Shown here: piece by piece, positions 33,001 through 60,152 of the stretch
Position numbering within the stretch: the first letter of the stretch is position 1
Layout of the letters: each line of letters starts with the position of its first letter
NCBI GenBank assembly: GCA_964499685.1
Contig: CAZCLW010000001.1
Coordinates: 119,859-183,858, forward strand
DNA: 64,000 nt
Reading direction: 5' to 3'
From: an uncultured Planctomycetales bacterium
GTDB taxonomy: Bacteria > Omnitrophota > Gorgyraeia > Zapsychrales > GWA2-47-8
Position numbers and translations under genes: made by a program
Notes under the pieces: generated by a model
The model's database searches: none
Seen by the model: only the letters and a program-made list of their open reading frames with translations
What the model was told of the DNA's origin: nothing

Positions 33001-36000
33001 CATCGTTCTCTTTACCGCGCTCGCGGAGATAGTCTTCATTCCGGATAAAGAGGATCATTCTGACCCCAGGGCGGATATTTGGCGCGGGGAGAGGTTGTGG
33101 CTTTTCAGGATACTGACTTTTTCAGTCATCAGCGTTTCCCTGATACCGATCGGCAATATTGTGCTTACCGAATTGATTGGTAAGGATATCTCGACCCTCT
33201 ACTCAGCCATCTATGATCATAATCCATCCCTGGCCACTATAGTTGAATGGACCGCCTATATCCTGGCCGGACTGGACATATTTTTATTGGTTGTTTTTGC
33301 GGCCTTTGCCGTTGTTAAGAAGATCAAGATGATCAAGCGGCTTGATGAGTATGTCCATGTCAGGACATGGGGGAGATTGAAGGAAAGATTGACCAGTAAC
33401 GGTCTGAACAGTCTCATCATTATCGGTTGGCCGGGTTCGGGCAAAAGCTATTTGGCGCAGTGGTTGAAACAGCAGTGGGACAATCATGAAGAGCATGTGG
33501 AGGTCCTGCAGGCTGACATGTTCTTTAAAGAGCGGGTCCACATCTTGCCCATGGTGCTCCTGCAGTCTTTGGGCTGGATCCCGGTTGTCTGGTGGCAAAA
33601 ATGGATAAGCCGCCGGATGATGAAAAGAAGGATAGACGGCGAGAAGTTACAGGCTTTCTTCGAGACACTCACGGCCTACCGCGAATCCTTGCAACACGAT
33701 CCTGAGCACGCGCTTCAGGTGCGGTTGCAAGTCAGAAAGCCTCATCCGCCGCTGTTTTCACCTTCGATCATCGATATTGAACTTAATTTGACACCAAAGA
33801 CCATCTTGGTCTTTGACGGATATTTCTTCGCTTATTATCTGGAACAGGTCCCCCATCCGCATATCTTATTGTTGAAAACATCTCTTTTCCGTTCCTTCCT
33901 GAACTATGTCCATCGCCACCGCAAGGTCAACGGTGCAAAAGGGTTCGTAAAAACAGCCATATCTTCTTTGGCCTCTGCGGCAGGGATCCTGATCGATTAT
34001 CCGGTCATCCAAACTTCCCGTCACATCGGGACCGAATACATCATTGATTTTAACGGCCACGAAGAGCCTCTTTTATTGAAGAACGGCAAGAACGGCAAGC
34101 ATAACGGACGGAAGGGACACAAGAATGGCGACCATGACAAAACTCCGCCGCAAGACCGCAGCGGGGTCCATGTTAATATGCCGGTATTTACCGTCGGGAT
34201 CGCAGGTTATATGGCCGCGCAAGCCCTGCCTCTATCCCCATGGGTAGGAGTCGCATTCTTGGCCATTACTTTTATTGGTTTGATCCTTTGGGCTTTGCCC
34301 GCCGACCCCCGTCGATACGACCGCAAGTCCTATGAAGATTATAAAAATACGCGCGGAGAATTGGGCGATGTTTACGCGTTCTTTATCAAAGAAATCATTG
34401 TTCCGCATCTAAAACCGGAAGATGTGGTGGTCGAGGTGGGTGCTGGAGCGGGAGGATTAAGAGAATTACTGGGGAATACTTTACCGGAAGGGGTCCGTTG
34501 GATCGAGACCGATTCCAGCCAAGAAGCCCTTGATTATCCTCGGCGCTTCCCGACAGAAAGACAACAGGTAGTCTTGCCGCAGCTGCCGTTTGATCCGGAT
34601 TCTGTTTCAACGGTTGTCGGATTATCCTCGTTAAGCTCTCTCAATCAGCCGACCATAGTTAGTTCTCTTCAGGAGATTTTCCGCGCTGTTCAGCCCGGTG
34701 GGAAATTTATTCACATTATGGATCTTATCCCTCCGGCCGGCGAGGAATGGGAAAAAGCCCAAAAGGAAGGGCTTTTCCTGCTTCCGCGCGTTGCCGATAT
34801 TGCGGGCGGCCCCCTGTCTCTGGGATTGCTGTATGTCAGTCAGGAAAGATTGTCTAGGCAACCTGCTCTGGTGGAGCAGGCCATAGAGTTTATCCGTATT
34901 TTCAAGACAAACAATTCCCGCGGATTTCTGGATGATGCCATGGTCCAAAAGTTGAGGCGTTTCGAGGAGGAGCTGGACCGTGCCCAGGTCGTGGTCCGCA
35001 AAGAAAACAGTATGATCGAGGTCAAGGACCGGGAAATCAAGGCCGCCGTCCAGGAAGCGGGCTTCAGGACCCTTCAGGCCGGTTTATTCCAGATTAACTT
35101 TGCTGTCGATAGAAAAGATGTTTCCGGGCTGGCGCCATCTATCAACACGGTGATCTTTGACCATGGCAAGATCGGCCGGTATCATTTCCCGGACGTTCCG
35201 GGCGATAAGGTCCAGATCTTTATTGCCGTGACAGCGCTTGTCGCGGAAAAACCCCTACCGCCTCCGGCGGACCAAACAGAAAATGCGGCCAATGACTGGC
35301 TAGCCAAAAGACTTAACAGTTTTGCCCGGCTCTGGCAGGGCGCCGATCCTGCCCTGCAAGAACGGTTCCGCGAAGAAACCGCCTTATTGAACGCGATACT
35401 TGATCAGCAGGAGACCGAGATAGGCCGGGATTATTTGGCCCGGCTCATCGGATTGCAGGAGGCATACAACCACTTCCATCGTCGGGGTCTTTCGCCCCAT
35501 AGGATGCCTGAAGGGATCGAAGAGACGAATTGGAAAGGTTATGAAGGAGTGGATCTTCACGGTTGGTTTTGGAAAGCCGAAGGCAGTGAAGAAAGACGTC
35601 CCGCGGTTGTTTTGTTGGCTCCATGGGGTTTTGATGCCACATGGAATCTCCCTCTCGCCCAGCGCTTAAGAGAACACTGGAACGTTCATTTTGTGTTCAT
35701 AAGTCTGCGCGGCCACGGAAAGAACGGTTCTTCGCTGACAACGTTGGGGATCGCCGAAAGCCTGGACTTGCAGGAGATCGTCGGACAATTGGCGGCGCGC
35801 CATGATGTGGATCCGGATAGCGTCATGGTCATTGGTCATTCGTTGGGCGCGATCAGTTCCATTATAGCTCAGGCGAGAAAACCGCTCTTTCGGAAGATCG
35901 TTGCGGTCGGTCTTCCGGCGACCTACCGCGCCGCTGTTTCCAGCTGGATAAGGAATCTGGTCCTCTCCCAGCAGCGCTATCGCCGGGCGTTTGCCCAGTT

Positions 36001-39000
36001 CCCGGTCCCGGAAGAGTTGAACGAGGCGGTGGTTTTGGCAGCAGGGAACGCGGTGGAAACGATCCGGGAGTGTTATGTGAAGGAAATAGGCATTGATATA
36101 AAAAATTGGACCGTGGCTGGTATAGCTGAACCGGTCGAGGCCATCCGTCACATCAACGCACCTGTCCTTTTAGCCGTGGAGTCCGATCAGATAGTCGTTA
36201 ATGCCGCACAGCGCGAAGCTTTTGCGGGATCTGCAGGGAATTCAGTTTCCATCCGTACATATGCCGGGACGCATAACGGGATCTTAACGGGCGAAGACGG
36301 GGAGCGGTTTATTCAAGACGTTGTGGCGTTCTTATCAGAAAGCATACCGGCCGCTCCGGTCACGCGAGAAAGATTCATTGATTTCTTAGATCAGCGCGCT
36401 GTAATTTGGCAAGTCCTTTCAGCTCTGGAAAGCTTCCGCGCGGAGGGGATGATCCGTGGTTACGGTATATCCGGAAGTTTTTCGCGCGGCGAACTCCGTC
36501 TGGATAACGGTCACGACCTGGATATCGCGCTTTTGCTCAAAACCCGTCCGCAATTCCCCGAAAGACTGATCAGATACATTGATCAGGTCAATAAAGATCA
36601 CGGCGATGCCGTACATATTACCCTTGAGGCCTTTGGACCGGCCTATCGCTTCGACCCACAGACCGGATCGCTGCGGTTTGAGATGGTGCGCGGCCGGGAG
36701 ATTGTCCGGTCCCAGATCGGATCCGGTAAATATAAAGGAAATAGATTTATTCAGCTTTCAGATTTGCCCATTACTACGGATGTCCTGTGGCAGTTGTATC
36801 AAACATTGGCCGCCTTGGGCCCGCTGACAACCGATGAGGTCCGGGCGATGCTGGATGTGGAAGCCTGTCCCAACTGTGTCCTTAAATTACTTTCTCCACA
36901 GCGCGCCGTTGAAGTTTACATGCAATTGCAAAAAGATCCGCAGCGTAATATCCGTTTTGTCGAGGGCCATCCTTATTTTAACGTTCAAGCTTTACTGGAA
37001 ATTCTCAGGTCCGATGAGATCGAGCGCATCTTTGTCGAACCGGACCCAACCGCCCCGGGGCGCGGCTGGCATGCCACCTCACGTAAGACCGGCGTCCGGC
37101 TGACCGATATTCCGGACCCGGCCAACGCCTGGGTGGGGGCCGCAGAAGATACATTGGGTGGCTGGTCAAAAATTTTGTTGGATGGCTTAAAAAAGGCAGG
37201 ATTGGCGTCAAAGCAGTCGTTAAGGATCATCGATTTGGGGACCGGTTACGGATATTTCTTGCAGCATTTTGGACGACTTCTCAAGCAGTGGGGCTATCGC
37301 GTTGAGGCTTTGAAGGGCATCGATTATGACAGCGGTTTGGCTAATGCCCATCAAGTTTTGCGCGAGCGGTCTGCGGAATTGCCGTTAATTTTTGCAACCG
37401 CCAGAGTGGCGGAATACAGCGATGACCAGGAATACGATATCGTGTCCATGAACGCCCCGCATACCCAGGTCTTGGAAGAATTTACTTTACGCGCTCTGCA
37501 GTTGGTCAAAACAACCGGAATTATCTGGATCCGGATGGAGCAAACACAAGAAGACTGGTTTGTCTCTGCCATGACGGAATTGAGCTATCATTTCAAGAGA
37601 ATACCTAAATTTGCCGGAATGGAACTTAAGGAAATGGAATTGGTTGTGGGGGACGGTCTCGTGGACAATGAATGGAGTAAAAGTCCCGTCGTTCATTTAG
37701 TCTATTTTACTTCTTCAAGGCCTTCGAATTTGCGCGATGATCCTAACGGCCGGGTGGGGGCCAAAACAAGAAGAGAATGGCAGCCGCACGAGATCCGTCA
37801 GTGGCTTTTGGAAGAACTCGGAGAAGAATTAGGCATTGCTTTTGTGAGGGTTTTGATTGAAGGGTATGAAAAACTTCTTAACGGTGAGAATATTGATAAG
37901 GTCACACTAGCTGGTCTCTCCTATCAGCTGCGCACGGACCATTTTCTGGTGGCGGGATTGGGGAGAGTGATCAAATATCAATTCGAAAATTCACATTATG
38001 AGGCTGTCATCCGTTTATTCGACCGTCTTCCTTTAGCGAAAGGAAATTTTGTTCGTTTTACGGCCGGAGAAAAACGAGTCCGGCCGGAGAAAGATCCCTT
38101 TGCCGCACAAAAAGAGATCCGCCGGCGTTTGGCGTATTTGAGCGGCGCTCCTTGGATCGCTACCCTTGTTGACGAATACGAGATGCTTCCTGACAGCGGC
38201 GGAGACCCCCATACAATCGACCGCCTCGCGCAGACCGCCTATCAGATCAGAAGAGGGCATTTGCATATATCCAGCTTGAAGGATGTTTTGACCAAAGGCT
38301 TCGATGGTGATCCCCGCCAGGTGATAATGTATGCCTTCCCGCGGCTTGCGCTCAAAGAAGAAGGCTTCAAGGTCGTCCTGAAGGTCGATAAAGACCACTT
38401 TTATCAACGGGTTTACCGGATCAGCAAAGACCCGGCGACAGGGAAGGAACTCCGAGAACTGGTCAATGTGGAACGTCAGAGTGCGACATTTTCCTTCCTT
38501 GATACGCCGGGGCCGCATCTACGCCGCACATTTTTGGCGCAGGATGGACGTATCTATCTGTGGCCTAAGAAATTCGTTGGGCCGCTTAGGGTCATTAAGG
38601 TCAATGGCCGGAGCCGGCCGGATCCGGCCTTGACCGGAAGAGCGGTGGATATTTATTATGATGCCGACAATATTCCACGCCGGCTCGTGATCTATGAAAC
38701 ACCCGAGCGGATCAAACTCTTGGATTCCATTCATCTCCACCCTATATTGACCGTCCTGGATTCAGGGAGGACCCAGCTTCACGATGTTTATTATCGAGGC
38801 TATCCTTCCCAAAAGCGCCAAGCCCTGACGAACCATGTTGTCGAAGGAAGATTGAGCCCTCAAGGGACTTTTTCATTCGCGAATGATAATAAAGAGGCTT
38901 CCGGTGCCTGGGCCAGATTTGGGTTGAGGGCCGATCACACTATAGATCCTTCTTATGCCGGCGCGGCATACTCCGCCTATTTTAAGGATGGCTATCCTCT

Positions 39001-42000
39001 GTGGGCCGTTATCTATAAAGAAGGCCGATTGACCGAGGAAGAAGGTGAGCTGCATATTTTCCAGCGCATTCTAAGACAAAAGGACCTGAAAGTGGTCAAA
39101 ATTTTCGGTACAACGATATCCATGGCTACCTGGCCCACGATTTTATCCGAACATGGGCCGATCTTCATTGAAGGCAGTTATGTCGCCGATAAAAAGGGTA
39201 TTATTACTATCGCCGGCAGAAAACTGCGTTCTAGGGAATTGGCTGGCCTTCCTGTACTTATGAAAGCCGATGAGACCGGCCGTTTTTATGCCATGCCGAT
39301 GATCGTTCCCGATAGGATGAGAAAATGGAACCATGCGGTTTTTGCGGCCCAAGTGAAAAATATGATGGCGCAAGAACTGACCCGCGCCCCGGCTGAGCGT
39401 GTGCTCATTGTTCCGGAAGGCATCGATGAAAAAAGCCGGTCATTTTATGAGCAGCTATATCGGAAGGAAAGATTAAGCCAAAAGGGCGTGGTTTCCTTGT
39501 ATGAAGACATTATCTATTTAGGGGATTTTGCCCTGGATCAGATCTTGCGTGGAGTTCCTGAGGACGTCTTGAATTACAGAATTAAGTCGGGGGATAGGGA
39601 AGATACGATCAGGGAATTCATACGTCAGGTCATTCGCCATGGCGTGGTCAGTATCAATCGCGGAACTTTGGGCCCAGCCCATGAACGTCTGGGCCGGGAT
39701 ATCAATCTGCGAGAAAGGCCAAGGATCGCGCTTATGTCGTTTGTTTTGCGGGCAGAGGCCGCGAAGGACCTGATCTGGGCCAGCCATGCTTATCTGGTTT
39801 CAGAAGAGATCGCGCGGGTCCGGGCTGCGCGTCACCTTAAGTTAAATGGAGAAGACTGGGAAGAATTGCATGCGATCGGGTTAAACGTATCGCTGAGGAA
39901 GGCTGTCCAGTTTTATAACATTTATGATGCGCGGTCTAGGAAGGCGACATTTGTTACATATGCCCGCAAGATCATCGAGCGCGATATGCTCAAGGCCCTT
40001 ATCAAAATTTCAAAAGTAAGAAAACGGATGCCTTTGTCATTGCATCATCCTTATGGACCAGAAGCAGAGGGGCGGCAGTGGTCGTTGCTTGATGAGATCG
40101 TGGATGAAAGGACCGGCGTAGTAACAGAAAGCTTTACACCGACGCAAGGTTCCGCCAAAGATGGATTTTATGCAATCATGCAAGGATGGCGCATTCTGGA
40201 CGAACGTACCGCGGAAATGCTTTGGTTGAGATTTTTGCATTATTTTGGTTTTGAAAGATGGACTTATCAGCAGATCGGAAAAAAATTCGGTGTAAGCCAT
40301 GAGACCGTCCGCTTGACCGTTTTATCGCTTTTAGAGGCATTATTCCAAAGACCGGAGATCATCGTCGATATCGGTGCTTTATTCGGCATTCGATTGGATG
40401 CGGATACGCTTGTCTCGCTCTTGGAGCGCTGGAACGGCAACGGTAACGGTAGCGGAGAACATAACGGTGATGATGAAGGTTTGAAAGGAAAACAGGCCAA
40501 TGCCCTGGCCTGGCCGGTCATGGCTTTGGTCCTCTTGTACATTTATCCTTCCCTGATGACCTTGGCAGCGATAGCGCTCCTGGTGGTTTTGTCGGCAGTC
40601 GTTTGGTATAAAAAGCCGCGGCCGCGCGAAGTTGCTTTAACACATTTTCGGAAAAACCTGCGCAGGACAGTCATGTTTAACAATGATACTGCGGGCTATT
40701 CCTTATGTTATCCCACCAATGAGGATTATCTTGGCGCGCAGATCCCTGGTTTACGGCAGATGGTCGAAGCGAAAAAAGCCGCCGGAGAAACGACTGTGGC
40801 CGTTTCCGTGTCCGTGGACCAAACCCTGGGCTTTTTAACGCTTTTTGACCGCGTCTATCTCCTGGATAATACCGCCGCGGTCGTTGAATTGGCTTTTCCG
40901 GCGATGATCAAAATGATCATGGAGGCGCAAAGCCGGGCTGATTTTGCGGCACGGCTTTTCTGGAGGGAATTGAGTCCGGAGCAGTTAAAGGATTTGGAAC
41001 ACGCCCCGTTATCCGCGATCGAAGAATATTTAAGGGATGATGATCGCTTTGCGGATCGCGGCGTAGATCGAATGTCCTATGTGGTGGAGCTTCTTTATGG
41101 GATCGCGACCCGGAAGATGCGCTGGACATTATTGAGAAAGAGGGAATTTGAGGATGCTGTTTATGAGTTGCGCAAGTTGTTCTTCGGCTGGATCAGGACC
41201 GAAGAAGATCTTGATTATGCACCGGAAAAGAGATTATCCGCTTTTGCCGCGGCAACATACTTGAAAGATGAGGATTCTTTCCGGACGCTGAAGACGAAGC
41301 TGGCATCGGGCGCATTGCTCCCTGTGCTCGGCGAAATAGAGGGGGAAGGCTTAAGATATGTCACAAATGATCTGCAGGAGAAAGGATGGACGGCGCATCT
41401 GATCTATATTTCAAACAGTCTGGAATTGGCCGGCCTGTTCGGCAACACAGGGCTTATCGACCACGACATTTTTGCGAAGTTCAGGGCCAATCTCAGGCGT
41501 GCCAGGGATAAAAGGGTCATTGACAGCCGGACATTGATCTCCTGGGGTATCGAAATTGACAGGATGCGTCTGAATACCCTGGAAGAATTCTTTGGCGTTG
41601 ATTTTCCGCTCGACGAGGAGTTTTTGGGAAGTAAATCGCACAAGGCTGTCGTTTATCACGCTGATACCAAGATTTCCCGGAGGCCTTATCGTCCGAAAGC
41701 ACCGGAAGAGCGGTATACGGACGTGGATCAGTACCTTCTCGAGAAAAGGATCGATCCGCGGGTATTAAGACAGTTGGTGAAGATCAACAGGAGCAAACTC
41801 AATGTCTCGATCGTTATCCCGACGACAAAGAGCAGCCGCCACTTAAGAGAGACCGTCGAGCATGTGGCCAAGCAGTTTTCTTTTATACGGCAGCAGCGTC
41901 CGGGCTGGACGGTCGAGTTGATCCTGGTTATCAGCGGCGAAGAATTGGACCGGACGCGGGAAGCGGCTTTAGCTCTTCAAAATGAATTTTTCTTTGCCGG

Positions 42001-45000
42001 AATCAGGGAATTCACCGTTATTGAGTTAGATGTACCGGGAAAGGTCAATGCCATGAATGCCGCTGCTGAATACGCTAAAGGAAAGGATTCTGATGTAATC
42101 GGGTTCATTGATGATGACGTACGGTTCCTGGATGAAAATATGCGTTTAGACCGGACTGTATTCATACGCAGCGTTCAGCATTTGGTCGACACCAAAGAAG
42201 CTTATTTTGTGGGGCCGGACCTTCACATTCTCGCTTCTGAAAATCGCAGCGGCCTGATCACCCGGGCCGAGCAGGCCTACCGCGAACGCCGCGCGCATTT
42301 GGCGCTAAGGTTCCCGGTGGGCGCCGCCATGTTCATGCTGACCAAAACTTTCGCGCCCATGCCTTCTTCAACGATCAGCGATGATATGGCATTGCGTTAT
42401 TATTATGGCGATCCTTATATATTGGAACAGCGCGTTCAAGTCGTGCCCAAAACAGCCGTATACGCCCGCGGCGAAGGAAGTTTCGGGGAGTATTGGAAAC
42501 GCCGTTTCCGCTTGAGCGTCGGGAATAAACAAGCCGAAGACTTCTATAGGGAGAAATACGATGCCATAAGAAAGCTGCGGCCTGCCCTTTCCTCATTTTG
42601 GTTAAGGACCTATCTCTCTGGATTGAATAAGCAGCAAAGAGGTGAGGCCCTGAAAAATCTTTTTGTGCTCCTGATGGCCGGCGGCTGGCTGCCGATCCAC
42701 ATTTATGTTGTTCTGCGTACGCGTTTCAGAAAAATCCTTCATCTTGATCCCTACCGCACCAAATGGCACGCCGTATCTTCATCGACTCAATGGGAAACCT
42801 CTTCAAAGCAAGTGAATGTCCTGGCCTGGCCGGTCATGGCCGGGACGGTGGTCTATCTCTACCCGTCCCTCGTGACGCTTGCCGTGATAGTCGTTCTCAG
42901 TATACCGTTTCTGGTCTATTGGTTCAGAAAAGAAAAAGCCCATCGGCCCCGTCATGAATTGACCGCCAAACAGGAAGAGGCTTGGAGCTATGACCGCGCC
43001 GTCGACTGGGACCTTTACGGTGCCGTCGAGGTCCGCGCCCTTCTCAGACGTCTGGAAGAGGAGAACAAGCTAGGGGAAGTGATCGTCGATGCGGGATCTT
43101 CTTATAGCCCGGTGACCCGCTTATTGAAAGATAAAAAGGTGATTGCCGTTGATGTAGCGGCCATGAAGCCCAGTGAAAATATCCGGTCCGCCGTTGCCAT
43201 ACCTGTTGATTCGCCCACGATCCTTCTGCAAGGAAATATCCAGCAGCCGGAAAAGATCACGGCGATCGAGGAGGCCCGTTCTTTGCTTGGCGCCGCTGAG
43301 CACATTAAAAATCTTGATGAATTATTGGGTACGCGCGTCGATACGGTAGTTCTTTCCCGTATCCTCAATTATGTGGATTACGAGCATGTTATCGCAAAAG
43401 TCATTGCGTGGCTTAAACCGCAGGGCCGCTTGATCGTGGCGAATGATACCCGTCAGGGATCGCGCCGGCGGTTCAGTTCCGGCGGCCTGAAGAACAACCG
43501 GCGGTTCGTGGCCTTTTTGAAGTCGCAGGGCTTTGCGATCGAAGAGCTCGCCCCTGATCCCGTCGGAAAACGTAAAGATGTCATGCTTGTTGCCCGTTAT
43601 GATCCCGGCGAGGTTCTGTTCGGACACCAGGGTCATGCCCAGGGAGAGCATAAGTTGTCTTTGGAAATAAGGACGGCGGATCCCAAGCAGTGGATACGGC
43701 AGCGTTTGGTTCCTGCTTACCTACACGAGGGTTTCAAATTAAGTCTGGCTCTTAACGAGCCTAATTATTTGCGCTTTGCCCTCAACCCTGTTGAGGCGCA
43801 GAGTGATGATGATTTACGCATGTTGGTCCACCTTAAAGCCCAAGAGGATATTGTTTACATGTACGGTGGAAAATTGCGCGACCGGCGCGGCAAACTGAAC
43901 TGGCGGGTGATCGAAAGATACCTCAAGGAAGCCTTGTTCCCGTTCCTGCTTTCCCGCGGATTCAAGATGGTCTATGTTCCGATCGTGCATAAACATGCCA
44001 AAGCGCGCCTTATCAACATGGGCTTCAGGCGCCATGGCGACGGAACGCTAAAATATGAATTGGCGCCGGACCTTCTTCCGGAAGCGAAGGGCTCGCTCAG
44101 CGGAATGGGTTTCGCCGTCGTCCCGCTGTTTGCTGGCATGCCTGACGGCATGGTGAGTTTATTGATCACATTCATGGTGTTTGCTATCGGAATGATGTGG
44201 ATGGTCAGCGGAAACGGGAACGGATACGGCCCGCGGCGGGAACGCCTGCGCAGATTGTTCGTCCAGAAGAACCTTAATCCCAAGACCGCGAAGGGCGACC
44301 GGACCGCGCATGTTTATTCGGTGACAACGGTCAACCCTGCCGAGAAACTGATCTTCCATACGGCGCAATCCGATAAGGGGATCGAGCGGCTGGAGAACAG
44401 CTTTGATATTCTGCACGCGCTGCAGTCGGAAGGAAGGCGCGAAGATCTTCCTCATCTCTTAACGCCCATCCGGCGGTGGGAGCCAACCACGATTGACGGT
44501 AATAATTTGCGGCTGTTTGAGATGGACCGCGACGGCGAACAGCACGGATTTATCACCAACTATGTCTCGGGAGTGAACGGTTATCGGGTCCTGTTCAGGC
44601 ATGTTGTTCAATTTTACGGCGCGCCGACGGCCTGGCAATGGCTGGTCTCCTCGGCCGAAGTCCTGGCTTTCTTGCATAAACGAAGCGACGGTAAACCTTC
44701 CATCGTGCACCGCGACATCAAGCCGGGTAATTATGTCATTGATGTGATCGACGGGAAGATTTCCGTTGTGCTGATCGACTTTGAGTCAGCGGTCGAAGCA
44801 GGAAGACGTTTTAACGACCGGGAAGAGATACATCTTTTCACTGAGGATTTCTCGGAACGGGAACTTGCCAGACGGGGCGTGCCTCTCGTATCTTTTGATC
44901 AGACCGCGCGTCACGCGTTTGATATTTTCGGCTGGGGGATGACAACCTACTATTGGATGACAGGGGACTTTCCGTACGCCGCCGCCAAAAGTATGAACAT

Positions 45001-48000
45001 TGCCACCTTGTTCAGGGCTTGGAAAAGAAGATTATTGCGGGCCGGGGCTTCTGCGTCTACTCCTGTCATCCTCAGGGCCATGATGCCGTTCCGCGATATG
45101 CGTTACCGCTCCATGGACCATGTGGTAAGGGACCTGCATAAACTCGGCCAGGCGCAGGGATTAATCGTCCCTAACGGCGATAACGGCAAAGAACATAGAC
45201 CGCTGGGTTTTGCGCCGAGAGGGTTCTTGTCATGGCTCTACTCCATTCTTCCCGACGGGGCTCTCGGATTTCCGTTCCGCGTGGCGTTGGCGGGGATCGT
45301 GATCCCGATCTGGGAAGGTATCAAAGATTTTGCGTTGCCGTCCTTAATCCTTGTCTTAAGGCGCAAGGTGAGTTTGTTCGATGTCAAGGGCCTTATACGG
45401 ATCATGCACCGCTTTAGGGCCATGCATGAGGACCAATTTTTTGTTGCCAACAGCCGTGTTGCCTTCCATAAAAATGATTTTACCGAGGAAGAACAACAAA
45501 GAATCAACAGGGCCATCCGGTCCTTCTCACGGATCTTTATCCTGCCCTATTTAGTATGGCTGAGGTGGATGCGCGGCTGGATGGTCTTTGTCGGCGTGAT
45601 CAACGCCTACCTGGGCGTGGTCGCTCTGGCGATAGGAAGGCCCATATTTCCTTATCCCTTCGCTCTTTTTGCAACGGCCTTTATTCTGGTCCTGCCGATC
45701 ATCCTGGCGACGGTCCATTCCGTCGTTCTTCACATTTCTTACAACCTTTCCGTCTTGCTTTTAGACGAAATAATCCCGCTGGCCATGGCCAGTCCGCTTA
45801 AAGAAAAACGCGGAAAATTGATCAGAAAAGTCATAGCCGACTTAAAAAAGAAGGGCGTTAAACCATTGGCCACGGCGGTTACAGAAGAGATCCGGAGGAG
45901 GGCCGCTGAAAATTCTAAGATAGAAGAGTTGACATTCGATCAAGTCTGGAGCACGGCCGAGGAATTAGGTATTGAATTTGAGACACGGTCCATCGATAAA
46001 AAGGAACGTGTTAAACAGATCAAGCGATTGGCGGAAGATTTTCTCGCCAAGAATAAGCGCAAGCCAACGCTTCACGAAATGGTCGATCTGCTTAACACGG
46101 ACAACAAAGGTACGGATGTCACGTATCAAAATTTGTTCAAGTGGTTTGAGGGCCATGATGTCGATTATCAGCGCTTGGGCATCGTGAAAGTCGAGCGCAG
46201 CATGGAAAATTCCCTAAGCCAGATCGTCGAAGCCGCCCGCGCGCTCCAAGAGGAACGGTCGAGCAATGAGATCACGATGGCGGAGATCAGGAAAAAAATG
46301 GGTGTTAAGAATGCGGCTTTCTCAAATCGTCTCAGAAGATTGAGGGAAGCCGGCAAGGATGCCCAGGCCGAATTAATTGCGGCCGGGTTTGTGTTCAAGC
46401 AACCGCCGCCCAAGCGGGTCAAGCCGCCGAAGGCCCAAAGGGAAAAGAAGACGCCGGTCATGAAAGTCCGCAAGGTCCGGATCCCCAAGGAAAAGCGTCA
46501 AGGTGTGGGGAAGGGCCAGCCTCTTCACGTGCGCAAATTGATCCGCCGGGGAGAATTTGAAGAGGCTGAGAGGATATTGAACGAATGGGATGAAAATAAG
46601 ATGGGATCGGTCAAGACCAACGCGAAATTACGTCAGGAGCTTGAGGCGCAGAAGATCGCTGGTCCTGTCCCTGTCCATGTTCCTAAAAAACGGGAACGGG
46701 TTGTCCGCGTCAAAAAGCCCGGCGTGGGGCGGGGGAACATCGGCCGTATCCGCAAAATGATCCGTCTGGGAGAATTTAACGACGCGGAAGCCATGTTAAA
46801 CGATTGGGAGGCAAAGCAATTGCTGCCGGCGTCGCAGATTGCCGGATTCCGAGAGAGCCTAGCAGCCGGAAAAATAAAAGCGGAACAGGAAAACGCTGAG
46901 CGAGAAAGATTGGAGGCCGAGCGTGTTTTAGAAATTGAACGCGCGAGAAGGGCTGAAAAAGAAAGATTGGCGGCCGAGATCGCAGAAGCCGAATTCAAAA
47001 TGAAAGCTGACTCGGAAAGACTTCAAGACGCCGCGGAGCAATTAAGGACGGCCCAGGAAGAAAGATTGAATTTGGCCAGAGAGCAATTAAGCAGGCAGGA
47101 GGAAGCTTTGCGGGCCGGGTCGGGCAATTTGCGCCGGCAGCTGAACGATCATCGTGCGGCCTTGGAGGATCTCGAAAGAAGATTGGAAGAACAGGGCCAG
47201 CGTTTACAAAGGAGAGTGCAGGCCCTGCAAAGAGAAGAAGAAAGGAAACAGAAAGAGATCGTCCAGCTTATCGAGCGGATCAATGAGCATTTAACCCAAC
47301 ATATTTTCTTTGAGGCGGGAGCGCGCAGGGCCTTAACGCGGCTCAAAGAACTTTTGCCGGGCGACGATGAGCGCTTGGCAGTCCTTGAAAGCAAATTAAA
47401 CGAAAGAGCGGTATTGGAGCGGGACAACGCCATTATCCGGGCCATGTGGGATGCAATTGAAAAGCAGGAGTTCGATCCGAATGCGGCCGGTAACGCCATT
47501 GAAAAGCTGAGGAAAGGTTTGAGCCGGGACCGCCCTGAAATTGTCCGCATCCGCGAAGCCTTGGTCGTAAGAGACCGAATGGAGAGGGGAATTTACGAGC
47601 AGACCGTTAAGGTCAAACCTATCGGAAAAGCTGTGCCGCTCAAGAAGGCTGATGAAAAATCTGCACAAGCACCGACCATCGAGCAATTGATCGAGAAGGG
47701 CGATTATGGCACCGCCCGCGCAGTCCTGGGCGGTCTATCCGAAGAAGATCGGCTGCAATGGGAAGAAAGAATAAATATAGAAGAAGGGTGGCTCGAGATC
47801 GTCAATTTGATCGCTGCCATCCGACGGGAGATCGTGCATTTGCCCGATACAGGTGACATCACCGAAGAATTGAATGCTCTTAACCGCAGTATCGACCGGC
47901 TCAAAGAACTGGAAGAGAAACATCCCTATTCCAAAGACCGGGAAAAAATGGCCCACATGGAATTGAGGGAAAAGGTGCAGGCCATCCAGGAAAAATGGAA

Positions 48001-51000
48001 TAAACGTAAGGCCGATATCGAACGCCTCCGCGCGTTGATGGACAAGGAATCAAAGAAGAAAAAAGATTCATGGGTTAAGCCCAAAGGGAAACCGTTGTAC
48101 GCCATTGCGTTCCCGTTGTACGGCCTTGCGGCTTTAGACCCTGCACAGATGTTCTCGGCCGACATGCAGTCCATTTTCGGAATTTTATTTGCGGTTTTTG
48201 CTGCTTTTACGGTATTTGCCGTGTCGGGAGGAAAAGGGAGGAAGAACGAAAATATTGATGAACGACTCACTATTTTATTAAAAGCAGCCGGTTCTTTCAT
48301 CAAGCATGCGCCCGACGGCCGTGTGGAAATATGGGCAGCCAGCCGCGATTGGTTCCTGGAGCAGTGGGGGCGTGATACTTTTATCGCTTTGCCAGGACTT
48401 CTTTTGGTCACGGGCAGATTTGAGGAAGCAAAGAATGTCATCGCCGGTTTTGCCCGGTATGAAAATAAGGGACTTCTCCCTAATCGTATTTTACCGGGCG
48501 ATCAAATTATGGAATATAACAGTGCGGACGCGCCCCTATGGTTTATGCAGGCAGTCAAAGAATACCTTAATTACACAAGCGATTGGGATTTCCTCATGGA
48601 AAATGACGGTCTGATTTTACGGACGATGCGCAACATCATTTTTCATTATAAAAACGGAACAGATTATCGGCGGCATGGAAAAGAGCGGCGTATAACCATG
48701 GATGAAATTGATGGATTGATCATCAGTCCGTCCCAAGCCACCTGGATGGATGCCGATCCGAACGGACAAGATCGTCCCGTCACACCGCGCGACGGGAAAG
48801 CGGTCGAGATCAACGCGCTCTGGTATCTCAATCTGAGGTTTATGGTCGAGGTTGGAATAAAATTCGGTGATATCAACAGTGCGGCAGAGCATCAAAAGCT
48901 TGCCGATAAAGTCAGAAGATCATTCAATGAAAAATTTTGGAATCCGGCCTTTGAGCATGATCCGTCAGCGACTCCTCTGTTCGATGTTATAGAGGGGGAC
49001 CCGCATAAAGGCGCCATCCGTCCGAACATGCTTTTTGCCGTCGGCCGCACAAGCGACCTTCTTTCCATTGAGCGCCGGAAAGCGGTTGTTGATGTGGCCA
49101 CCCAAGAACTGCTCACGCCTTACGGCTTGCGCACGTTATCGCCGCGCGATTCGCATTACCATGACGTCTACGACACGACAGCGCCCGTTGAGATCAAAGA
49201 CCAGGCTTATCATCAGGGGACTGTCTGGCCGTGGCTCATCGGTATTTATATCGACAGTCTGGCGCGTGTCCGAAAACTTGAGCGGGAAGAAGTTCGAAGA
49301 TTGCTTGACCCTCTCCTTGAGTTCCTGATGAGCAGCCCGGCAGGGTCTTTACCGGAAGTTTTTGACGGCGGCGATATCAGCGGCATTCAGCCGCAAAAAC
49401 CCGGCGGGACCTCTTCGCAGGGTTGGAGCGTGGCCGAGGTCCTGCGTGTCGCGGGAGAGTATGGCCTTGCTGGTCTCGGGCCAGGCCGGACCCGCGATGA
49501 ACAAGAAGCGGCTGAGGTCGACAAGCGGTTGCTCGTCGATGAACTTGTAGGATTTTGGAAGAATTTGACCCCGGGACAGATGTTCGCTTTGATGAAAAAG
49601 GACTTGCCGGGAGAAGAAATCAATAAAAGGTCCAGAGCCTTGATCAAGGAGACGTGGGGGGCCGAGGACAGCAATGAATATGGCCCGGAATTGTTCGGCT
49701 ACAGGATGACCCCGGACCAGCTCAATGATATTTTTGACAAAACGGGAATAAGGGCCGGAGATACGGTCCTTGAAATCGGGCCGGGATGTTCGCCCTTGAG
49801 CATGATCGCCGCTTTACGCGGGGCCCATGTGACGGTCATTGAAGCATTTGAATTGTTTGCGATCCGCCAGCATGTCATGTTTGAACATAACCGCACGGCG
49901 ATCGAGCTTGCGGGCGGAAGCTTCGACTATATGGTAGGCGGCATCTTTAGAGAAGATGTGCAGGCTAAACTGGCGGATAGAAAATTCGATCACATTATTA
50001 TTTTAAATGTCCTGAACCCTCGTGACGTAACCGATCCGCGGTTATCGGCGATAGCGGGATCGTTAGGAGAAACAGACCTCACATCACCGCATTTTGGGAT
50101 CCTTGACGCACAGGAAGTGGGTAAAGTGTTAAAAGAGATTGCACGTAGAAAGGCCCCTTCCGCAGGATCCATACTGTTCAATGTCAATACTTCCTACTCT
50201 TTCAGCATGTCCCGGATGTTAAACCTGATGACGGAATTTAAGGGTTGGCTAACGGCTGAGGGCGTTAAATTATCTTCGGTTGCCGGATTGACCTGGACAC
50301 CCCTCGGCGAACACACGGCTGTAGTTTGGCCGACCGAAGGTATAAATGAGAATAAAAATGCAGGACAAATACTTCCAGGTATCAATTTATCATGGGGTTT
50401 CCTTGCCCTGGATCCAATGGGGATGTTCAAGCCGGGGATGGAGAAGTTCTTCGGCACCGTCTTTTTATTGGGCCTGATTTTCCTGGGATGGTTTATCTTT
50501 CATTGGTGGAAAAACTACCCATTAAGAAGAATACGAAATATAGTCCGTCAATACCGTCTCGGGGCGTTTGATCTTCCTGTGGCGTTGGCATACTTGGCGA
50601 AAGACAGTGCGTATTTTGACATAACTCTTTTCCATGAAGGCCCGGAAACCAAGATCAAGGCTTTGATAAGGAATATTTGGAAACAATCGACGGGCGAGCC
50701 GTTGCCTTCTTGGGTAGAGATACGGAAATCCACAACTGCGTTGACGCCCAATCAGATCAGGGAATATGTAAAAAAGGTAGAGTTTCAAAAACTCGCCTTT
50801 GGTCTACATAATATGGCCTTCATTGTGAGCTTGAGGGCCAAGCAGGCGGATACGATTGAGTATTTAAGAAGGCTTTCGTATGGGATGACCTTGAGGGACG
50901 CCCGCAATTCCATTGCCTTCAAGGCTGAGGTCCTTGTAGACTCTTTGGGCCGAACCGGGCAGATCCGGTGGGTGGACGGCCGGATCACCACGTACCGTTG

Positions 51001-53046: not shown

Positions 53047-53460
53047 CTATTGAAATCCCGCAAAAACACCGGTGCCGAACTTTTCCAGTACTTCATCCAA
53101 CACTTGCACAAAACAGATCTGGCTTGTGTTATCGCCCCCGTCAAGAGTATTCCGTGTGGCGCAGAGGGTATAGCTGGTGCCGTCGGAGGCAATATCAATG
53201 CTGTAGGTAAAGTGAGAGTTCGGCATATTGAGATCGGGCGTAAGAAAACTCTGACTGATATCGCAATTATAAACTGCCGAGCCGGAAAGCCCATGGCAAT
53301 GTTCAAAGCTGCGCCGTAATTGCATCATTATGTTGAGCGCCTCGGCGCTCCGGGAATATTCGATCATACGGTACATGCGCGGCAGGCCCAACGCAGCCAG
53401 GACGCCCACGATGATAATGACAATAATGACTTCCAAAAGAGTAAAAGCTTTCTTATTCAT
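53047..53460 (-). CDS. Divergent prepilin-type pilin-like protein, paralog 4 (about 137 aa from MNKKAFTLLE; the ORF extends to 53487).
   Basis: MNKKAFTLLEVIIVIIIVGVLAALGLPRMYRMIEYSRSAEALNIMMQL.... It lacks the C-terminal YEGMEW motif of paralogs 1-3. TGATG coupling at 53460. Its stop at 53047 is 2 nt from the giant gene's stop (convergent). Confidence 0.7.
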   Translation of the reverse strand: MNKKAFTLLEVIIVIIIVGVLAALGLPRMYRMIEYSRSAEALNIMMQLRRSFEHCHGLSGSAVYNCDISQSFLTPDLNMPNSHFTYSIDIASDGTSYTLCATRNTLDGGDNTSQICFVQVLDEVLEKFGTGVFAGFQ

Positions 53461-53978
53461 CACCATTCCATCCCGTCGTAAATGCAATAACCTTTAATAT
53501 GGGTGCCGTGGGAAGAGCTGGAAGACAGGCTGATCCCGCCGGGGTCATCATTGACTAACATTGTTGAGCTCACAAGACTGCCGACCGTAAAAACCACGTT
53601 AGCTAAACAGTCCCCGTATATTCCGGAATCATCATCCCGCCAGGCGAATAAGGCATACCCCACGGACCCATCGGAAGGGTCGGTTACGGCCGATAAAAAT
53701 TCATACACAAATTTACTGGGCCCGGAAGGATCGTCAATGCCGAGCGCGGAAAAACTAAGGCAGTTTGTGTAAGCGGTCGTCCCGCCGCCTTTCATTAGGT
53801 AACACCGCTCAACGGCCGCCCGGATATTGCTGAGATGATTGATGGCCTCGATGGCGCGGGTGCGCTCGACCATGCGGATAAAACGGGGAAAGGCGAGGCT
53901 GGCCAGGACCGCGATAATGATGATGACGATAATGAGTTCAAGGAGAGTAAAGCCGGATCCCAGGCGTTTATTTACCAT
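53460..53978 (-). CDS. Prepilin-type pilin/pseudopilin-like protein, paralog 3, 172 aa.
   Basis: MVNKRLGSGFTLLELIIVIIIIAVLASLAFPRFIRMVERTRAIEAINHL...GYCIYDGMEW. It has Gly at -1 before Phe+1. It overlaps the upstream gene's stop by 7 nt. Confidence 0.8.
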   Translation of the reverse strand: MVNKRLGSGFTLLELIIVIIIIAVLASLAFPRFIRMVERTRAIEAINHLSNIRAAVERCYLMKGGGTTAYTNCLSFSALGIDDPSGPSKFVYEFLSAVTDPSDGSVGYALFAWRDDDSGIYGDCLANVVFTVGSLVSSTMLVNDDPGGISLSSSSSHGTHIKGYCIYDGMEW

Positions 53979-54493
53979 TCCATGCCTTCATACACACAGT
54001 GGCCGGTTATTGTTATTCCTTCATCGTTGCAATTGTGAAAGAAAATGACGCCTAGGGAATCGGGATGTGTTTGTACTCCCGAACCGCCGCAACCGCTCCA
54101 GGAAAGGGTGCAATCGGACGTAGTGGTGCCGCCATCCCGCGTATTGCGTACGGCTGTTAATCGATAGCCTATATTGGAAGAGGAGCCCCAGATACCGAAT
54201 TCAAAATGGCTGTTGGGAGCCGAAAATGGATTTTCGATCCCCAGCGTATTCCATAAACTCGGTGTCGGGGAGCCGGAGGCTGTCAGGCATGCCTGCAAAG
54301 CATTGTATCCTCCGCCGCGCATCAAATAGCAACGGTCGACAGCGGCCCGGATGGTCTGGAGTTGATTGATCGCCTCCAGGGCACGGGAGCGCTCGACCAT
54401 GCGGAAAAAACGGGGCAGGGCCAAAGCGGCCAGGACACCGACGATAATGATGACGATAATGACTTCAAGGAGGGTGAAAGCATTTTTGCGCAT
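53972..54493 (-). CDS. Prepilin-type pilin/pseudopilin-like protein, paralog 2. The ORF extends to 54520 as MCLRRHGMV...; the start at MRKNAFTLLE is preferred.
   Basis: MRKNAFTLLEVIIVIIIVGVLAALALPRFFRMVERSRALEAINQL...GHCVYEGMEW. The TGATG stop/start overlap with the upstream gene at 54493 gives a typical short leader peptide. Confidence 0.75.
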   Translation of the reverse strand: MRKNAFTLLEVIIVIIIVGVLAALALPRFFRMVERSRALEAINQLQTIRAAVDRCYLMRGGGYNALQACLTASGSPTPSLWNTLGIENPFSAPNSHFEFGIWGSSSNIGYRLTAVRNTRDGGTTTSDCTLSWSGCGGSGVQTHPDSLGVIFFHNCNDEGITITGHCVYEGMEW

Positions 54494-55002
54494 TACCATT
54501 CCATGCCTTCGTAGGCACAATAGCCTTTGATTTTAATGCCTCCGGAATTATTTCCCATCATGGCGACTCCGGCAACCACCGGCGCTCCCCAAGTCCAGTC
54601 GAAGCTGGTTACACCGTAGGGTGCGGTATCACCCATTACGCATGTGGATGAAATTCCCAGGTCGCGCGTGTTGCGTCTGGCATGCAGGACCCAACCGAAA
54701 GAGGTCTGACTGCCGGCCCAGGAGGCGTCATAATCGAAATGACTGTTGGGGCTGTTGGCCGGGTTTTCCGCGGCCCATACAATTTGACGGCAGTTGCTCC
54801 ATCCGGTAATGCCGCCGGTGCTTCCCAGATAACAGCGTTCAATGGCCGCCCGCAAACTGCTCAGCATACTGATTGCCTCCACAGCGCGGGTGCGCTCCAC
54901 CATGCGGAAAAATTTAGGCAAAGCAATGCTGGCCAAGACGCCCACAATGATAATGACGATAATGACTTCCAGAAGAGTAAAAGCTTTTTGTTTTTTAAGC
55001 AT
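54493..55002 (-). CDS. Prepilin-type N-terminal methylation-domain protein (type IV pilin / T2SS pseudopilin-like), paralog 1, 169 aa.
   Basis: N-terminus MLKKQKAFTLLEVIIVIIIVGVLA has the class-III signal/prepilin motif (FTLLE with Glu+5). A Cys pair brackets the C-terminal region. The C-terminal motif is GYCAYEGMEW. Its stop overlaps the next gene's start (TGATG). Confidence 0.8.
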   Translation of the reverse strand: MLKKQKAFTLLEVIIVIIIVGVLASIALPKFFRMVERTRAVEAISMLSSLRAAIERCYLGSTGGITGWSNCRQIVWAAENPANSPNSHFDYDASWAGSQTSFGWVLHARRNTRDLGISSTCVMGDTAPYGVTSFDWTWGAPVVAGVAMMGNNSGGIKIKGYCAYEGMEW

Positions 55003-55155: not shown

Positions 55156-56310
55156 GTGCATCTGATAAAGATCTCTTCCATAGTGTTCTTTTTGACCATC
55201 GCCGCGGGAACTGGTTTTGCCTCTCCCGTGGCAATGACTTCCCAATATTATGCCCAAAGAGGCCGTGAACTTTATGAAAAAGGCAAGCACGAGGCCGCCA
55301 TTACGGAATTCCATAAGGCCCTTCAGTCAGACCCTTCCAATCTGGAAGCCAAGCAGTATTTAGAAAAGCTCGGTGTCATGCCGGGAATCCTCTCTCGTCC
55401 GGAATCCACTCCCGTCAAGATCGCCAAATTAACACAAGAAGTAAAGGTCTATCAAGGCAAGCTGGCCGATTTGGAAACGGTCAACCAGTACTTGTCCTCC
55501 GACAACGAGCGATTGTGCGCGACCATGGAGGACAAAAATGAAGCGCTGGACGGCATGGGTATGCGGGTGAACATGCTGAAAGAAAAATTAAGCGAGATCA
55601 ACAGTCATCACAAAAAGCGTCTGGCCCGATACAAAAAACTCAACGACATTCAGAGCGATCAGCTTGAATTTCTGGAGCGCATGGTGCACCGGCAGAGAGA
55701 ATTGGTCGATCAGCGCGATCTTCTTCTCGACGAGCAGGAAGAAGAGCTTAAGGGCCTGAGCGACCATTTGGATTCTGTCAAGGATGTTTCCTTGGAAGAG
55801 ATCTATCGCGTCGAAGACCTGCGCCAGCAGGAAAAGGACCGGTATCAGGGGATGATCGCGGACCTGACCCGGAGTCTCCGGGAGAAAGAATGGGAGCTGG
55901 CGTCCTTGATCCCACCGGCGGAAACAGTTGAGAGCGATCTTTCAGCGCCCTACGCGGAGTTGGAGGAAAAGGTCCAGCTTTTGAAGAAAAAGGACAGCGA
56001 CATCGCGGCTTTAAAGGAAAAATTGGTCGAGGCCCGCGAACAGATCGGCCGATTGGAACAAAAAACGATAGGGGCGGAGGAGTCGCAGCAGGTTGACGCT
56101 TTAAAGTCCAGGGTAGAGACCATTCAGGGTGAATTGGACCAAAAGAACATTTCTCTCTCGGCCCAGGAGAATGATATTGCTATTCTTCAGGAACGGCTCA
56201 GCGATGCCCAGGAACAGCTGGGTATTGTCCAGGCCATTGTCGAAGATAAAGAGGGCCAGATCCTGGCCCTCGAAGCAGAAGTCAAGCAGATCAGACAAAG
56301 GTGCGAATAG
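55156..56310 (+). CDS. Secreted TPR-like / long coiled-coil protein (384 aa, GTG start).
   Basis: N-terminal signal peptide MHLIKISSIVFFLTIAAGTGFASP. TPR-like YAQRGRELYEKGKHEAAITEFHKALQSDPSNLEAKQYL. The rest is heptad-rich coiled coil. Confidence 0.7.
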   Translation: MHLIKISSIVFFLTIAAGTGFASPVAMTSQYYAQRGRELYEKGKHEAAITEFHKALQSDPSNLEAKQYLEKLGVMPGILSRPESTPVKIAKLTQEVKVYQGKLADLETVNQYLSSDNERLCATMEDKNEALDGMGMRVNMLKEKLSEINSHHKKRLARYKKLNDIQSDQLEFLERMVHRQRELVDQRDLLLDEQEEELKGLSDHLDSVKDVSLEEIYRVEDLRQQEKDRYQGMIADLTRSLREKEWELASLIPPAETVESDLSAPYAELEEKVQLLKKKDSDIAALKEKLVEAREQIGRLEQKTIGAEESQQVDALKSRVETIQGELDQKNISLSAQENDIAILQERLSDAQEQLGIVQAIVEDKEGQILALEAEVKQIRQRCE

Positions 56311-56313
56311 TCA

Positions 56314-57048: not shown

Positions 57049-57142
57049 GCATTGAAGAACAAAATATTCATGTTGGGTGTCCTGGTGCTGGCCGCACTCT
57101 TCGGCGGGATTTTTTTACCCCTCGATCAAAGCGAGGATTTTA

Positions 57143-57774: not shown

Positions 57775-57840
57775 CTCAGCAGTGAGATCTGCGTTTAAAG
57801 TATAGCGACGGACATTTCGTTTGAAGAAAGGACTCCCCTT

Positions 57841-59295: not shown

Positions 59296-59411
59296 AGATT
59301 CTTCTTTTTTCATTTTCTTTTAATCCGGTCTTAATTTACGATAACTATAATAAAGCGTTGTTTGAGGGAATGACCCGGAACAGGCCCCGCCACGGCGGGC
59401 AGGGAGAGCGG

Positions 59412-60017: not shown

Positions 60018-60152
60018 TCTTGTAACATACTGTAAAATAATAAGTTAAGAATAAATCTACTGGAAAGACCAGCCGGTATTTATCTGTGGTTGGCCTTCTT
60101 ATAATATGGCATACTTTAAGTAAGAAATGCGGTGAAGAAGGAGGTGGTAAAA

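Follow-up and report, generated by a model that had tools for sequence, protein, structure and literature searches.

A predicted giant multi-enzyme membrane protein from an Omnitrophota bacterium, with a GDE_C glucosidase among the modules of its C-terminal third

The 64,000-nucleotide (nt) stretch of contig CAZCLW010000001.1 analysed here, hereafter the window, is largely occupied by a single open reading frame (ORF) on the forward strand. This ORF runs from position 41 to 53044, comprises 17,667 codons with one terminal stop, and is predicted to encode a giant multi-enzyme membrane protein. A preliminary description had picked out positions 34380-50200 as a block of carbohydrate- and nucleotide-modifying enzymes, namely four S-adenosylmethionine (SAM) methyltransferases, a nucleotidyltransferase, a family 2 glycosyltransferase (GT2) and a GDE_C-like glycosidase, and had read it as an envelope or glycan remodelling toolkit, perhaps acting on a host surface. 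All the motifs that it quoted were recovered at their positions and in the frame of one ORF. The block is not a gene cluster: it corresponds to about amino acids (aa) 11,447-16,720 and lies entirely within the 17,667-aa ORF, in its C-terminal third. The start of the ORF is uncertain: the TTG at position 41 closely follows a stop, and the first ATG thereafter is codon 91.

From base composition, the log10 probability that nt 41-53044 would lack a stop by chance is -373, and in the other five frames the longest stop-free runs measure 206-1133 aa. The contig is metagenome-derived and homologs are undetectable for most of the ORF, as might be expected of an assembly chimera or of a non-functional, decaying ORF. 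However, a stop-free frame of 53 kb (chance about 1e-373) argues against both, and so do the intact catalytic residues of the hydrolase triad, the kinase catalytic loop, the GT2 DxD motif and the active site of the glycosidase. Moreover, the adjacent DUF4139 gene is identical in an independent Logan assembly and giant ORFs are common in Omnitrophota. We therefore consider an artefact extremely improbable. By sequence homology, the giant protein is encoded by an Omnitrophota bacterium, since all the organism-named best matches of the adjacent PCMT gene are Omnitrophica/Omnitrophota and the closest GDE_C relatives among species-representative genomes are Omnitrophota metagenome-assembled genomes (MAGs), with 57-61% identity.

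The flagged region encodes at least 11 independent globular modules along one chain, separated by hydrophobic anchors and by a spacer of about 760 aa. Besides the enzymes named above, it holds an alpha/beta-hydrolase, a sigma-70-like domain, a Ser/Thr kinase-like domain, the charged spacer and the hydrophobic anchors, none of which had been listed before. All these features are on the forward strand. Only two of the at least 11 recognisable modules, GT2 and GDE_C, are carbohydrate-active, so that the description as a carbohydrate block holds for these two and not for the block as a whole.

The GDE_C module, an amylo-alpha-1,6-glucosidase domain of glycoside hydrolase family 133 (GH133), lies at 48293-49450 (aa 16085-16470). 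It scores 311.9 bits against Pfam GDE_C (cutoff 21), and its signature motifs TWMD, EINALWY and YHQGTVWPW are at nt 48740, 48806 and 49208. In profile-to-PDB alignments D16237 aligns to D1261 of hsGDE (D1241 of CgGDE) and E16439 to E1502 (E1492 of CgGDE), the two residues established as the acid/base pair by mutagenesis; D16112 aligns to CgGDE D1078, the glucosyl-coordinating Asp. The three catalytic acids are kept in 98-100% of 81 homologs. An AlphaFold (AF2) model made with a 62-sequence alignment reached a predicted local distance difference test (pLDDT) of 90.3 and a predicted template-modelling score (pTM) of 0.92. Foldseek matched it to the GC domain of Candida glabrata glycogen debranching enzyme (GDE; 5D06) with a TM-score of 0.80 and E ~1e-17, and further to human GDE (8ZEQ) and to the amylo-alpha-1,6-glucosidase of Thermococcus gammatolerans (7VMA). 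By predicted fold and residues the module is a catalytically intact GH133 alpha-1,6-glucosidase, and the glycosidase of the preliminary description is thus confirmed by profile score, catalytic residues and structure prediction alike.

This module is ~51-58% identical to thousands of free-standing proteins of 390-430 aa annotated as 'predicted glycogen debranching enzymes'. It consists of the barrel only, and TIGR01561 is matched at positions 259-566 only (221 bits vs a cutoff of 364). In a neighbour-joining tree, which is poorly resolved, it stands beside the GDE_C of an Omnitrophota frame, L014. The relatives in Omnitrophota MAGs are also found within open frames, whose minimum lengths range from 2,250 to 6,700 aa. 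In four out of four such giant frames of Omnitrophota type, L014 (JAFGHI010000047), L001 (JAQTPA010000011), L002 (CAZOGI010000005) and L054 (MNVP01000038), GDE_C directly follows a GH77 4-alpha-glucanotransferase; the fusions span approximately 7500-11200, 980-3200, 1660-4160 and 8000-10565, respectively, and no hydrophobic run interrupts them in L014 or L001. The L014 frame additionally contains glycogen phosphorylase and a GT5 starch synthase, the L054 frame an alpha-amylase and a GT5, and the L001 frame a dual-specificity phosphatase (DSPc).

GH77 and GDE_C together provide both activities of the eukaryotic indirect debranching route, and GT5 needs NDP-glucose. As GDE_C is fused to GH77 and GT5 in its relatives, these fusions suggest alpha-glucan (glycogen) metabolism in a nucleotide-containing compartment. 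By analogy, the function of the window module points to alpha-glucan metabolism and not to envelope remodelling, the role that had been proposed for the block. We hypothesize that it removes the single alpha-1,6-linked glucose residues left as stubs on a glycogen-like alpha-glucan. Such a debranching role would match the related giants that fuse the GH77 transferase, phosphorylase and GT5, the transferase partner being missing here. Retention of the GH77-GDE_C pair in the window was considered and rejected: the charged spacer lies upstream of GDE_C and a custom GH77 hidden Markov model (HMM) gave -1.2 bits. Around free-standing GDE_C-only genes (one Elusimicrobiota and one Bathyarchaeota genome) there are no glycogen genes nearby, and their context is uninformative.

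Four class I SAM methyltransferases (MTases) are distributed along the block. Over the 17,667-aa protein a regular expression for motif I matched at exactly four sites, where 300 shuffles predict 0.16, and motif I is accompanied by the acidic residue ending beta-2 at 4 of 4 sites. MTase-1 (34427-34711; aa 11463-11557) has the motif I VEVGAGAG, within VVEVGAGAG at nt 34427/34430 (aa 11463), and its acidic beta-2 residue in WIETD. It passes Methyltransf_11 marginally (23.8 bits, cutoff 21.2), reaches 25.7 bits with Methyltransf_25 and matches a SAM-dependent MTase in the PDB (9fcs, E 0.034). The other three score 20-22.5 bits, below the cutoffs. MTase-2 (37151-37555; aa 12371-12505), with IDLGTGYG in IIDLGTGYG at nt 37226 (aa 12396) and the acidic GIDYD, hits seven MTase families of Pfam, all sub-cutoff, the best being Methyltransf_23 at 21.5 bits. 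MTase-3 (43022-43585; aa 14328-14515) carries VDAGSSYS in IVDAGSSYS at nt 43082 (aa 14348), a degenerate motif I vs the family consensus VDVGSG, and scores 20.2-20.9 bits with Methyltransf_23. MTase-4 (49559-50191; aa 16507-16717), with LEIGPGCS in VLEIGPGCS at nt 49766 (aa 16576) and the acidic VTVIE, gives 22.5 bits with RrnaAD (cutoff 24).

Relatives of these modules were obtained by searching 1.84 billion representative proteins exhaustively with HMMER; aa 12100-12700, 14300-14600 and 16500-16797, joined, served as query and gave 191 hits. MTase-2 is related to P0021 (E 5e-21), whose matched stretch is MTS (23.8 bits, cutoff 23). MTase-3 belongs to a family of ~100 free-standing proteins of ~220 aa, found down to E 8e-22; two of its relatives, P0005 and P0006, pass Methyltransf_23 and Methyltransf_11, and the family profile matches nicotinamide N-methyltransferase (NNMT) in the PDB at E 5e-5. 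MTase-4 is related to P0011, P0038 and P0069, the last two of which pass RrnaAD/Methyltransf_11, and its family profile matches PRMT7 and METTL21 at E 5e-5. The solved relatives are thus small-molecule (NNMT) and protein (PRMT, METTL21) methyltransferases, not enzymes of nucleotides or sugars, and the reading of the block as nucleotide-modifying is not supported by them. A PDB sequence search with the raw region matched only the hydrolase, the kinase, GDE and, weakly, one methyltransferase.

The nucleotidyltransferase module, of Pol-beta type (36353-36871; aa 12105-12277), has the motif GSFSRGx9DLD, read as GISGSFSRGELRLDNGHDLDI at nt 36466 (aa 12142), which fits the superfamily pattern hG[GS]x9-13Dh[DE]h. 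Its direct Pfam match is Polbeta at E 0.27 only. It matches parts of the large proteins P0002 (E 8.5e-32), P0029, P0037 and P0071 (E 1.5e-10), and the matched stretch of P0071 is NTP_transf_2 with 40.8 bits (cutoff 21). The nucleotidyltransferase is thus supported through P0071, MTase-2, -3 and -4 through relatives of their own that pass the cutoffs, and MTase-1 by its marginal Pfam pass. Between the nucleotidyltransferase and MTase-2 lies a module of ~94 aa and unknown function (36866-37147; aa 12276-12369) which blastp finds at three places in the giant protein P0001, with 56%, 38% and 30% identity. It may be an uncharacterised domain shared by giant proteins.

The alpha/beta-hydrolase (35615-36274; aa 11859-12078) passes Abhydrolase_6 (41.4 bits, cutoff 26.3) and Hydrolase_4 (31.7 bits, cutoff 27) and matches 7qjm in the PDB at E 1e-6; its triad, as read from the sequence, comprises the GHSLG nucleophile elbow, Asp (ESDQ) and His (GTHNG). 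A second alpha/beta-hydrolase-like stretch at 25031-25384 (aa 8331-8448) is 29% identical to aa 11820-11946 (E 4e-8). The sigma-70-like domain (39827-40342; aa 13263-13434) covers regions 2-4, passes Sigma70_r4 (27.4 bits, cutoff 24.1), matches positions 67-211 of 235 of the NCBIfam SigK model at E 1e-9, and reaches 30.9 bits with TIGR02937, below its cutoff of 42.9. Several Sigma70_r4 copies are also present in the L014 frame (aa ~1171-1562).

The GT2 glycosyltransferase, of GT-A fold (41804-42511; aa 13922-14157), begins with VSIVIPT at nt 41804 and has DDD as its DxD motif (aa 14024-14026, nt 42110). It passes Glycos_transf_2 (44.3 bits, cutoff 23.3) and matches positions 3-226 of 230 of Glyco_tranf_2_3 (21.1 bits), so the glycosyltransferase proposed earlier stands. 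The Hanks-type Ser/Thr protein kinase-like domain (44513-44998; aa 14825-14986) has the loop HRDIKPGN, with DFE in place of DFG. It passes Pkinase (33.7 bits, cutoff 31.7) and matches TBK1 in the PDB (E 1e-4), with weak matches to NCBIfam kinase families. Its activity is uncertain, because motif reading identified neither the N-lobe Lys nor the Gly-rich loop. Downstream of it, an E/R/K-rich charged spacer of ~760 aa (45818-48100; ~aa 15260-16020), without any Pfam match, is probably helical or a coiled coil, judging from its composition. The DNA there is purine-rich: at 46001-48000 it shows a strong purine bias, with an AT skew of 0.28 and a GC skew of 0.17, because the E/R/K-rich spacer is encoded there.

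Hydropathy analysis assigns 29-35 hydrophobic segments to the whole protein, the first of them at aa 1121, and inspection of the translation revealed no N-terminal signal peptide. Within the block, MTase-1 is preceded by a charge-free hydrophobic anchor of 48 aa whose two halves surround PLSP (34160-34303; aa 11374-11421) and which may be a hairpin or a single-pass segment. An anchor motif that we call A occurs at 40493-40609 (aa 13485-13523, LAWPVMA..YIYPSL..) and again after GT2, where a hydrophobic segment (aa 14206-14225) and the second copy (aa 14257-14295, 42809-42925) together span 42656-42925; the copies are 53% identical by self-BLAST (E 1.6e-10). Hydropathy further indicates an anchor with two halves around MPDG (44090-44233; aa 14684-14731) and a cluster of 2-3 hydrophobic helices (45575-45763; aa 15179-15241). 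Motif B (G.xALDPxxMF..TM) is found directly before GDE_C (48119-48232; aa 16027-16064, GLAALDPAQMF..TM) and again at 50393-50509 (aa 16785-16823, GFLALDPMGMF..TM), so that its copies, 36% identical by self-BLAST (E 0.009), flank and close the unit formed by GDE_C and MTase-4. We asked whether motifs A and B are a family-wide junction or cleavage signal and rejected this, because none of 32 other giant or large proteins contains them; on sequence evidence they are duplicates within this protein only.

Several anchors run for 39-48 residues without a charge, with a Pro/Gly turn in the middle, and would resemble helical hairpins that bring the chain back to the same side of the membrane. Lys and Arg (K/R) accumulate on the anchor flanks. 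The modules are probably on the cytoplasmic face, because four domains depend on SAM, two or three on ATP/NTP and one on an NDP-sugar, a sigma-like domain stands among them, there is no signal peptide, and the anchors are hairpin-like with K/R-rich flanks. SAM, ATP/NTP and NDP-sugars being cytoplasmic, action on a host surface is accordingly unlikely, with the reservation that the topology is read from hydropathy. We thus favour, with moderate confidence, a giant Omnitrophota multi-enzyme protein with separate modules on the cytoplasmic side, GDE_C acting on a glycogen-like glucan. The modules would act as separate enzymes and not in one pathway.

Several observations weigh against this explanation. 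The topology estimate is a crude one, combining a Kyte-Doolittle window with the positive-inside rule. The first halves of the putative hairpins have ~15 residues, too short to cross a bilayer, and the two anchors that flank GDE_C and MTase-4 contain one full-length hydrophobic helix each, so this unit could be on the opposite side from its neighbours. MTase-2, -3 and -4 and the nucleotidyltransferase are assigned by transitive homology only, and a single-sequence AF2 model of aa 12100-12700 (nucleotidyltransferase and MTase-2) had a pLDDT of 36.6 and was not used. In the window ORF, Pfam detects no GH13 or GH77 partner and the custom GH77 HMM likewise finds none; given this and the uninformative free-standing contexts, the alpha-glucan substrate is presumptive here. 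Two domains frequent in the known giants were also not detected, SecA_DEAD (no Pfam match at E <= 0.01) and NUDIX (no Pfam match). Finally, published work favours an extracellular, prey-directed role (West-Roberts 2023).

According to this last proposal, which is made by West-Roberts 2023 and Kizina 2022, and which the preliminary description resembled, the block would be displayed outside the cell to remodel or degrade glycans of a host or prey envelope. With so many hydrophobic segments, alternate parts of the chain could be exposed outside, GDE_C and MTase-4 stand between two anchors with one full-length helix each, and pilin-like genes adjoin the ORF. However, SAM, ATP and NDP-sugars are unavailable outside the cell and MTase-4 shares its stretch of chain with GDE_C; nor would a sigma-70-like domain have a role outside. 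In the flagged region, Pfam and NCBIfam scans found no lectin, Ig-like, dockerin, lytic transglycosylase or peptidoglycan-binding domain. Adding to this the absence of a signal peptide and the fusion of GDE_C relatives to glycogen enzymes, among them the NDP-glucose-using GT5, we think that extracellular display is unlikely.

Outside the block, Pfam scans of the protein in 1000-aa tiles identified an Rce1-like CAAX intramembrane protease (aa 1351-1461) followed by adenylate kinase (both at 4091-4999), a PTS-HPr domain (9776-10024), HEAT repeats (HEAT_2; 14564-15949) and an APH-type kinase (17210-17893; E 2e-25). Across the ORF the distinct Pfam families are therefore Rce1-like, ADK, HPr, HEAT_2, APH, Methyltransf_11, Abhydrolase_6, Sigma70_r4, Glycos_transf_2, Pkinase and GDE_C, and no family dominates. 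Near the N-terminus, positions 86-2050 (aa 16-670) hold ~5 tandem repeats of ~120 aa with 31% identity (self-BLAST E 1e-52) and no Pfam match. Another internally similar pair is formed by aa 3853-3959 and aa 10360-10480.

The Rce1-like protease, together with the serine-hydrolase modules, raises the question of whether the product is a polyprotein, cut into separate soluble or anchored enzymes whose order means nothing beyond co-expression. Cleavage by C39/S8 domains has been suggested for such giants (West-Roberts 2023; 10.1101/2023.11.21.568195), and domain-sized, free-standing homologs of MTase-3 and GDE_C are abundant. However, Pfam scans of the ORF revealed neither C39 or S8 peptidases nor an autoprocessing domain of CPD type, and no cleavage motif recurs between the modules: the repeated junction motifs are anchors, absent from other giants. 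Processing of this kind appears improbable to us.

Directly downstream of the giant gene, on the reverse strand, there are three type-IV-pilin-like genes (N_methyl; one ComP_DUS-like) at 53460-55002. They are followed by a conserved block of TPR384, orf244, PCMT, DUF4139, orf219 and orf106 (55156-60452) and by an ORF with a signal peptide, of at least 1,130 aa, which runs off the window end (60609-64000). Two JGI metagenome contigs (L084 and L085) retain the whole run of seven flanking genes that starts with TPR384 and ends with the signal-peptide ORF, at 46-76% amino-acid identity, and have MutS and MutL at the place of the three pilin-like genes. Upstream, these contigs carry the giant gene P0001 (at least 6,608 aa), with SecA_DEAD, PGK, DDAH and lysine-decarboxylase-like domains. 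P0001 shows no similarity to the last 1,667 residues of the window protein, and its blastp comparison with the window protein gave no SecA match.

Since the giant gene of this syntenic relative has unrelated content, the enzyme block is, as far as homology tells, lineage-specific, with no sign of a conserved pathway. Large relatives of 1,000-6,600 aa have 1-4 modules each in common with the window protein, in different order. The modules come from a pool common to giant proteins, where they are carried singly and in other orders, and because relatives share them singly and non-collinearly there is no evidence of one pathway. A word-index homolog search with aa 11420-12820 gave nothing at E <= 1e-3, although this index misses divergent modules and the exhaustive search found relatives. 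Comparison of aa 13900-15180 with metagenome contigs gave no match, and in tblastn of the whole giant protein vs 80 GDE_C loci only GDE_C aligned. Module exchange among giants, and a syntenic relative with an unrelated giant gene, suggest fast mosaic evolution.

The adjacent pilin-like genes and the lineage-specific mosaic content, reminiscent of polymorphic effectors, also bear on whether the protein might be a delivered multi-effector of MARTX type, which on contact with a host cell would enter, entirely or in pieces, its membrane or cytoplasm; there the kinase, methyltransferases, nucleotidyltransferase and GDE_C would use host cofactors to modify host proteins and deplete host glycogen. 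Cofactor-dependent enzymes would fit a host cytoplasm, the kinase is weakly similar to type IV secretion system effector kinases and toxin-associated families, and Omnitrophota have been described in the literature as episymbiotic or predatory. However, domains for translocation, autoprocessing or pore formation were not identified, export of a 17,667-aa chain that has ~30 hydrophobic segments would be difficult, and modules of housekeeping type (adenylate kinase, HPr, sigma-like) do not resemble known effectors. We regard such delivery as distinctly unlikely. A contact-dependent version, in which a pilus-like system attaches, the anchors insert in the host membrane and the lineage-variable modules act on the host side, is a reading to which we give similarly little credence. 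If it were true, the kinase, the protein-methyltransferase-like modules, the nucleotidyltransferase and GDE_C could rewire host proteins and free glucose from host glycogen, and the cytoplasmic cofactor needs would be reconciled with a predatory or episymbiotic lifestyle.

Giant Omnitrophota proteins are documented and not understood, the leading idea being the extracellular degradation of prey walls. In the block described here the recognisable modules are nearly all cofactor-dependent and of cytoplasmic type, which makes the question of localisation concrete and testable. The GDE_C-GH77 fusions represent a eukaryote-like, two-step debranching arrangement in bacterial giants, which, according to term searches, neither of the two preprints discussed below mentions. 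As the GDE_C unit is short and, by prediction, well folded, it lends itself to expression and assay. The category itself is unchanged: this is one more protein for a catalogue in which thousands of at least 10 kAA (thousands of amino acids) are already listed.

Compared with known systems, GDE_C resembles the GC domain of eukaryotic GDE in its (alpha/alpha)6-barrel and in its three catalytic acids, equivalent to D1078, D1241 and E1492. It differs from eukaryotic GDE in having no GH13 transferase half, from the archaeal-type amylo-alpha-1,6-glucosidase (7VMA; TIGR01561) in having no N-terminal domain, and from both in sitting behind a hydrophobic anchor within a giant protein. In the GH77-GDE_C giant frames, GDE_C is 51-61% identical and stands with Sigma70_r4, Rce1-like and methyltransferase modules; the window has the charged spacer upstream of GDE_C instead of GH77, and nothing outside GDE_C can be aligned. 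With MARTX and polymorphic toxins the protein shares, by analogy, one very long polypeptide with a lineage-variable array of unrelated enzymes. It differs from MARTX in its many internal hydrophobic anchors, and neither a translocation region with repeats nor an autoprocessing cysteine protease domain nor a secretion signal was found in it.

The closest comparison is with the giant proteins of Omnitrophota. West-Roberts et al. 2023 (bioRxiv 10.1101/2023.11.21.568195) described the 'Archaeovorins' as giant multi-transmembrane proteins with a consistent set of glycosyltransferases, methyltransferases, glycoside hydrolases, peptidases, NUDIX and HEAT repeats; SecA_DEAD domains are frequent among them, and they adjoin loci similar to type II secretion systems (T2SS). 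Their threshold for 'giant' is 30,000 aa. Nielsen & Lui 2026 (bioRxiv 10.64898/2026.06.07.730766) catalogued thousands of proteins of at least 10 kAA, with a 'multi-enzyme metabolic cluster' class, a mean of 22 transmembrane (TM) helices and, beside 13 of 14 giants, genes for pili or secretion, and read TM-only giants as cytoplasmic-side. With 17,667 aa, the window protein is below the first threshold and above the catalogue threshold of 10,000 aa. It differs from Archaeovorins in carrying GDE_C, a sigma-70-like domain and HPr, and a GT2 instead of a GT5 or GT1; the terms 'GDE', 'debranching' and 'sigma' were found in neither preprint, HPr not being among the terms searched. NUDIX is carried by its relative P0029. 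In the remaining respects it resembles the class: 29-35 hydrophobic segments, where the class has about one TM helix per 400-800 residues; HEAT repeats, glycosyltransferase, methyltransferases, glycoside hydrolase, protease and kinases, none of them dominant; pilin-like genes next to the ORF, as T2SS/type IV pilus genes flank the class; and a poorly conserved sequence with shuffled modules in the phylum Omnitrophota. In summary, the window protein belongs to the described class of giant multi-enzyme, 'Archaeovorin'-like proteins, of which it is a fairly ordinary member.

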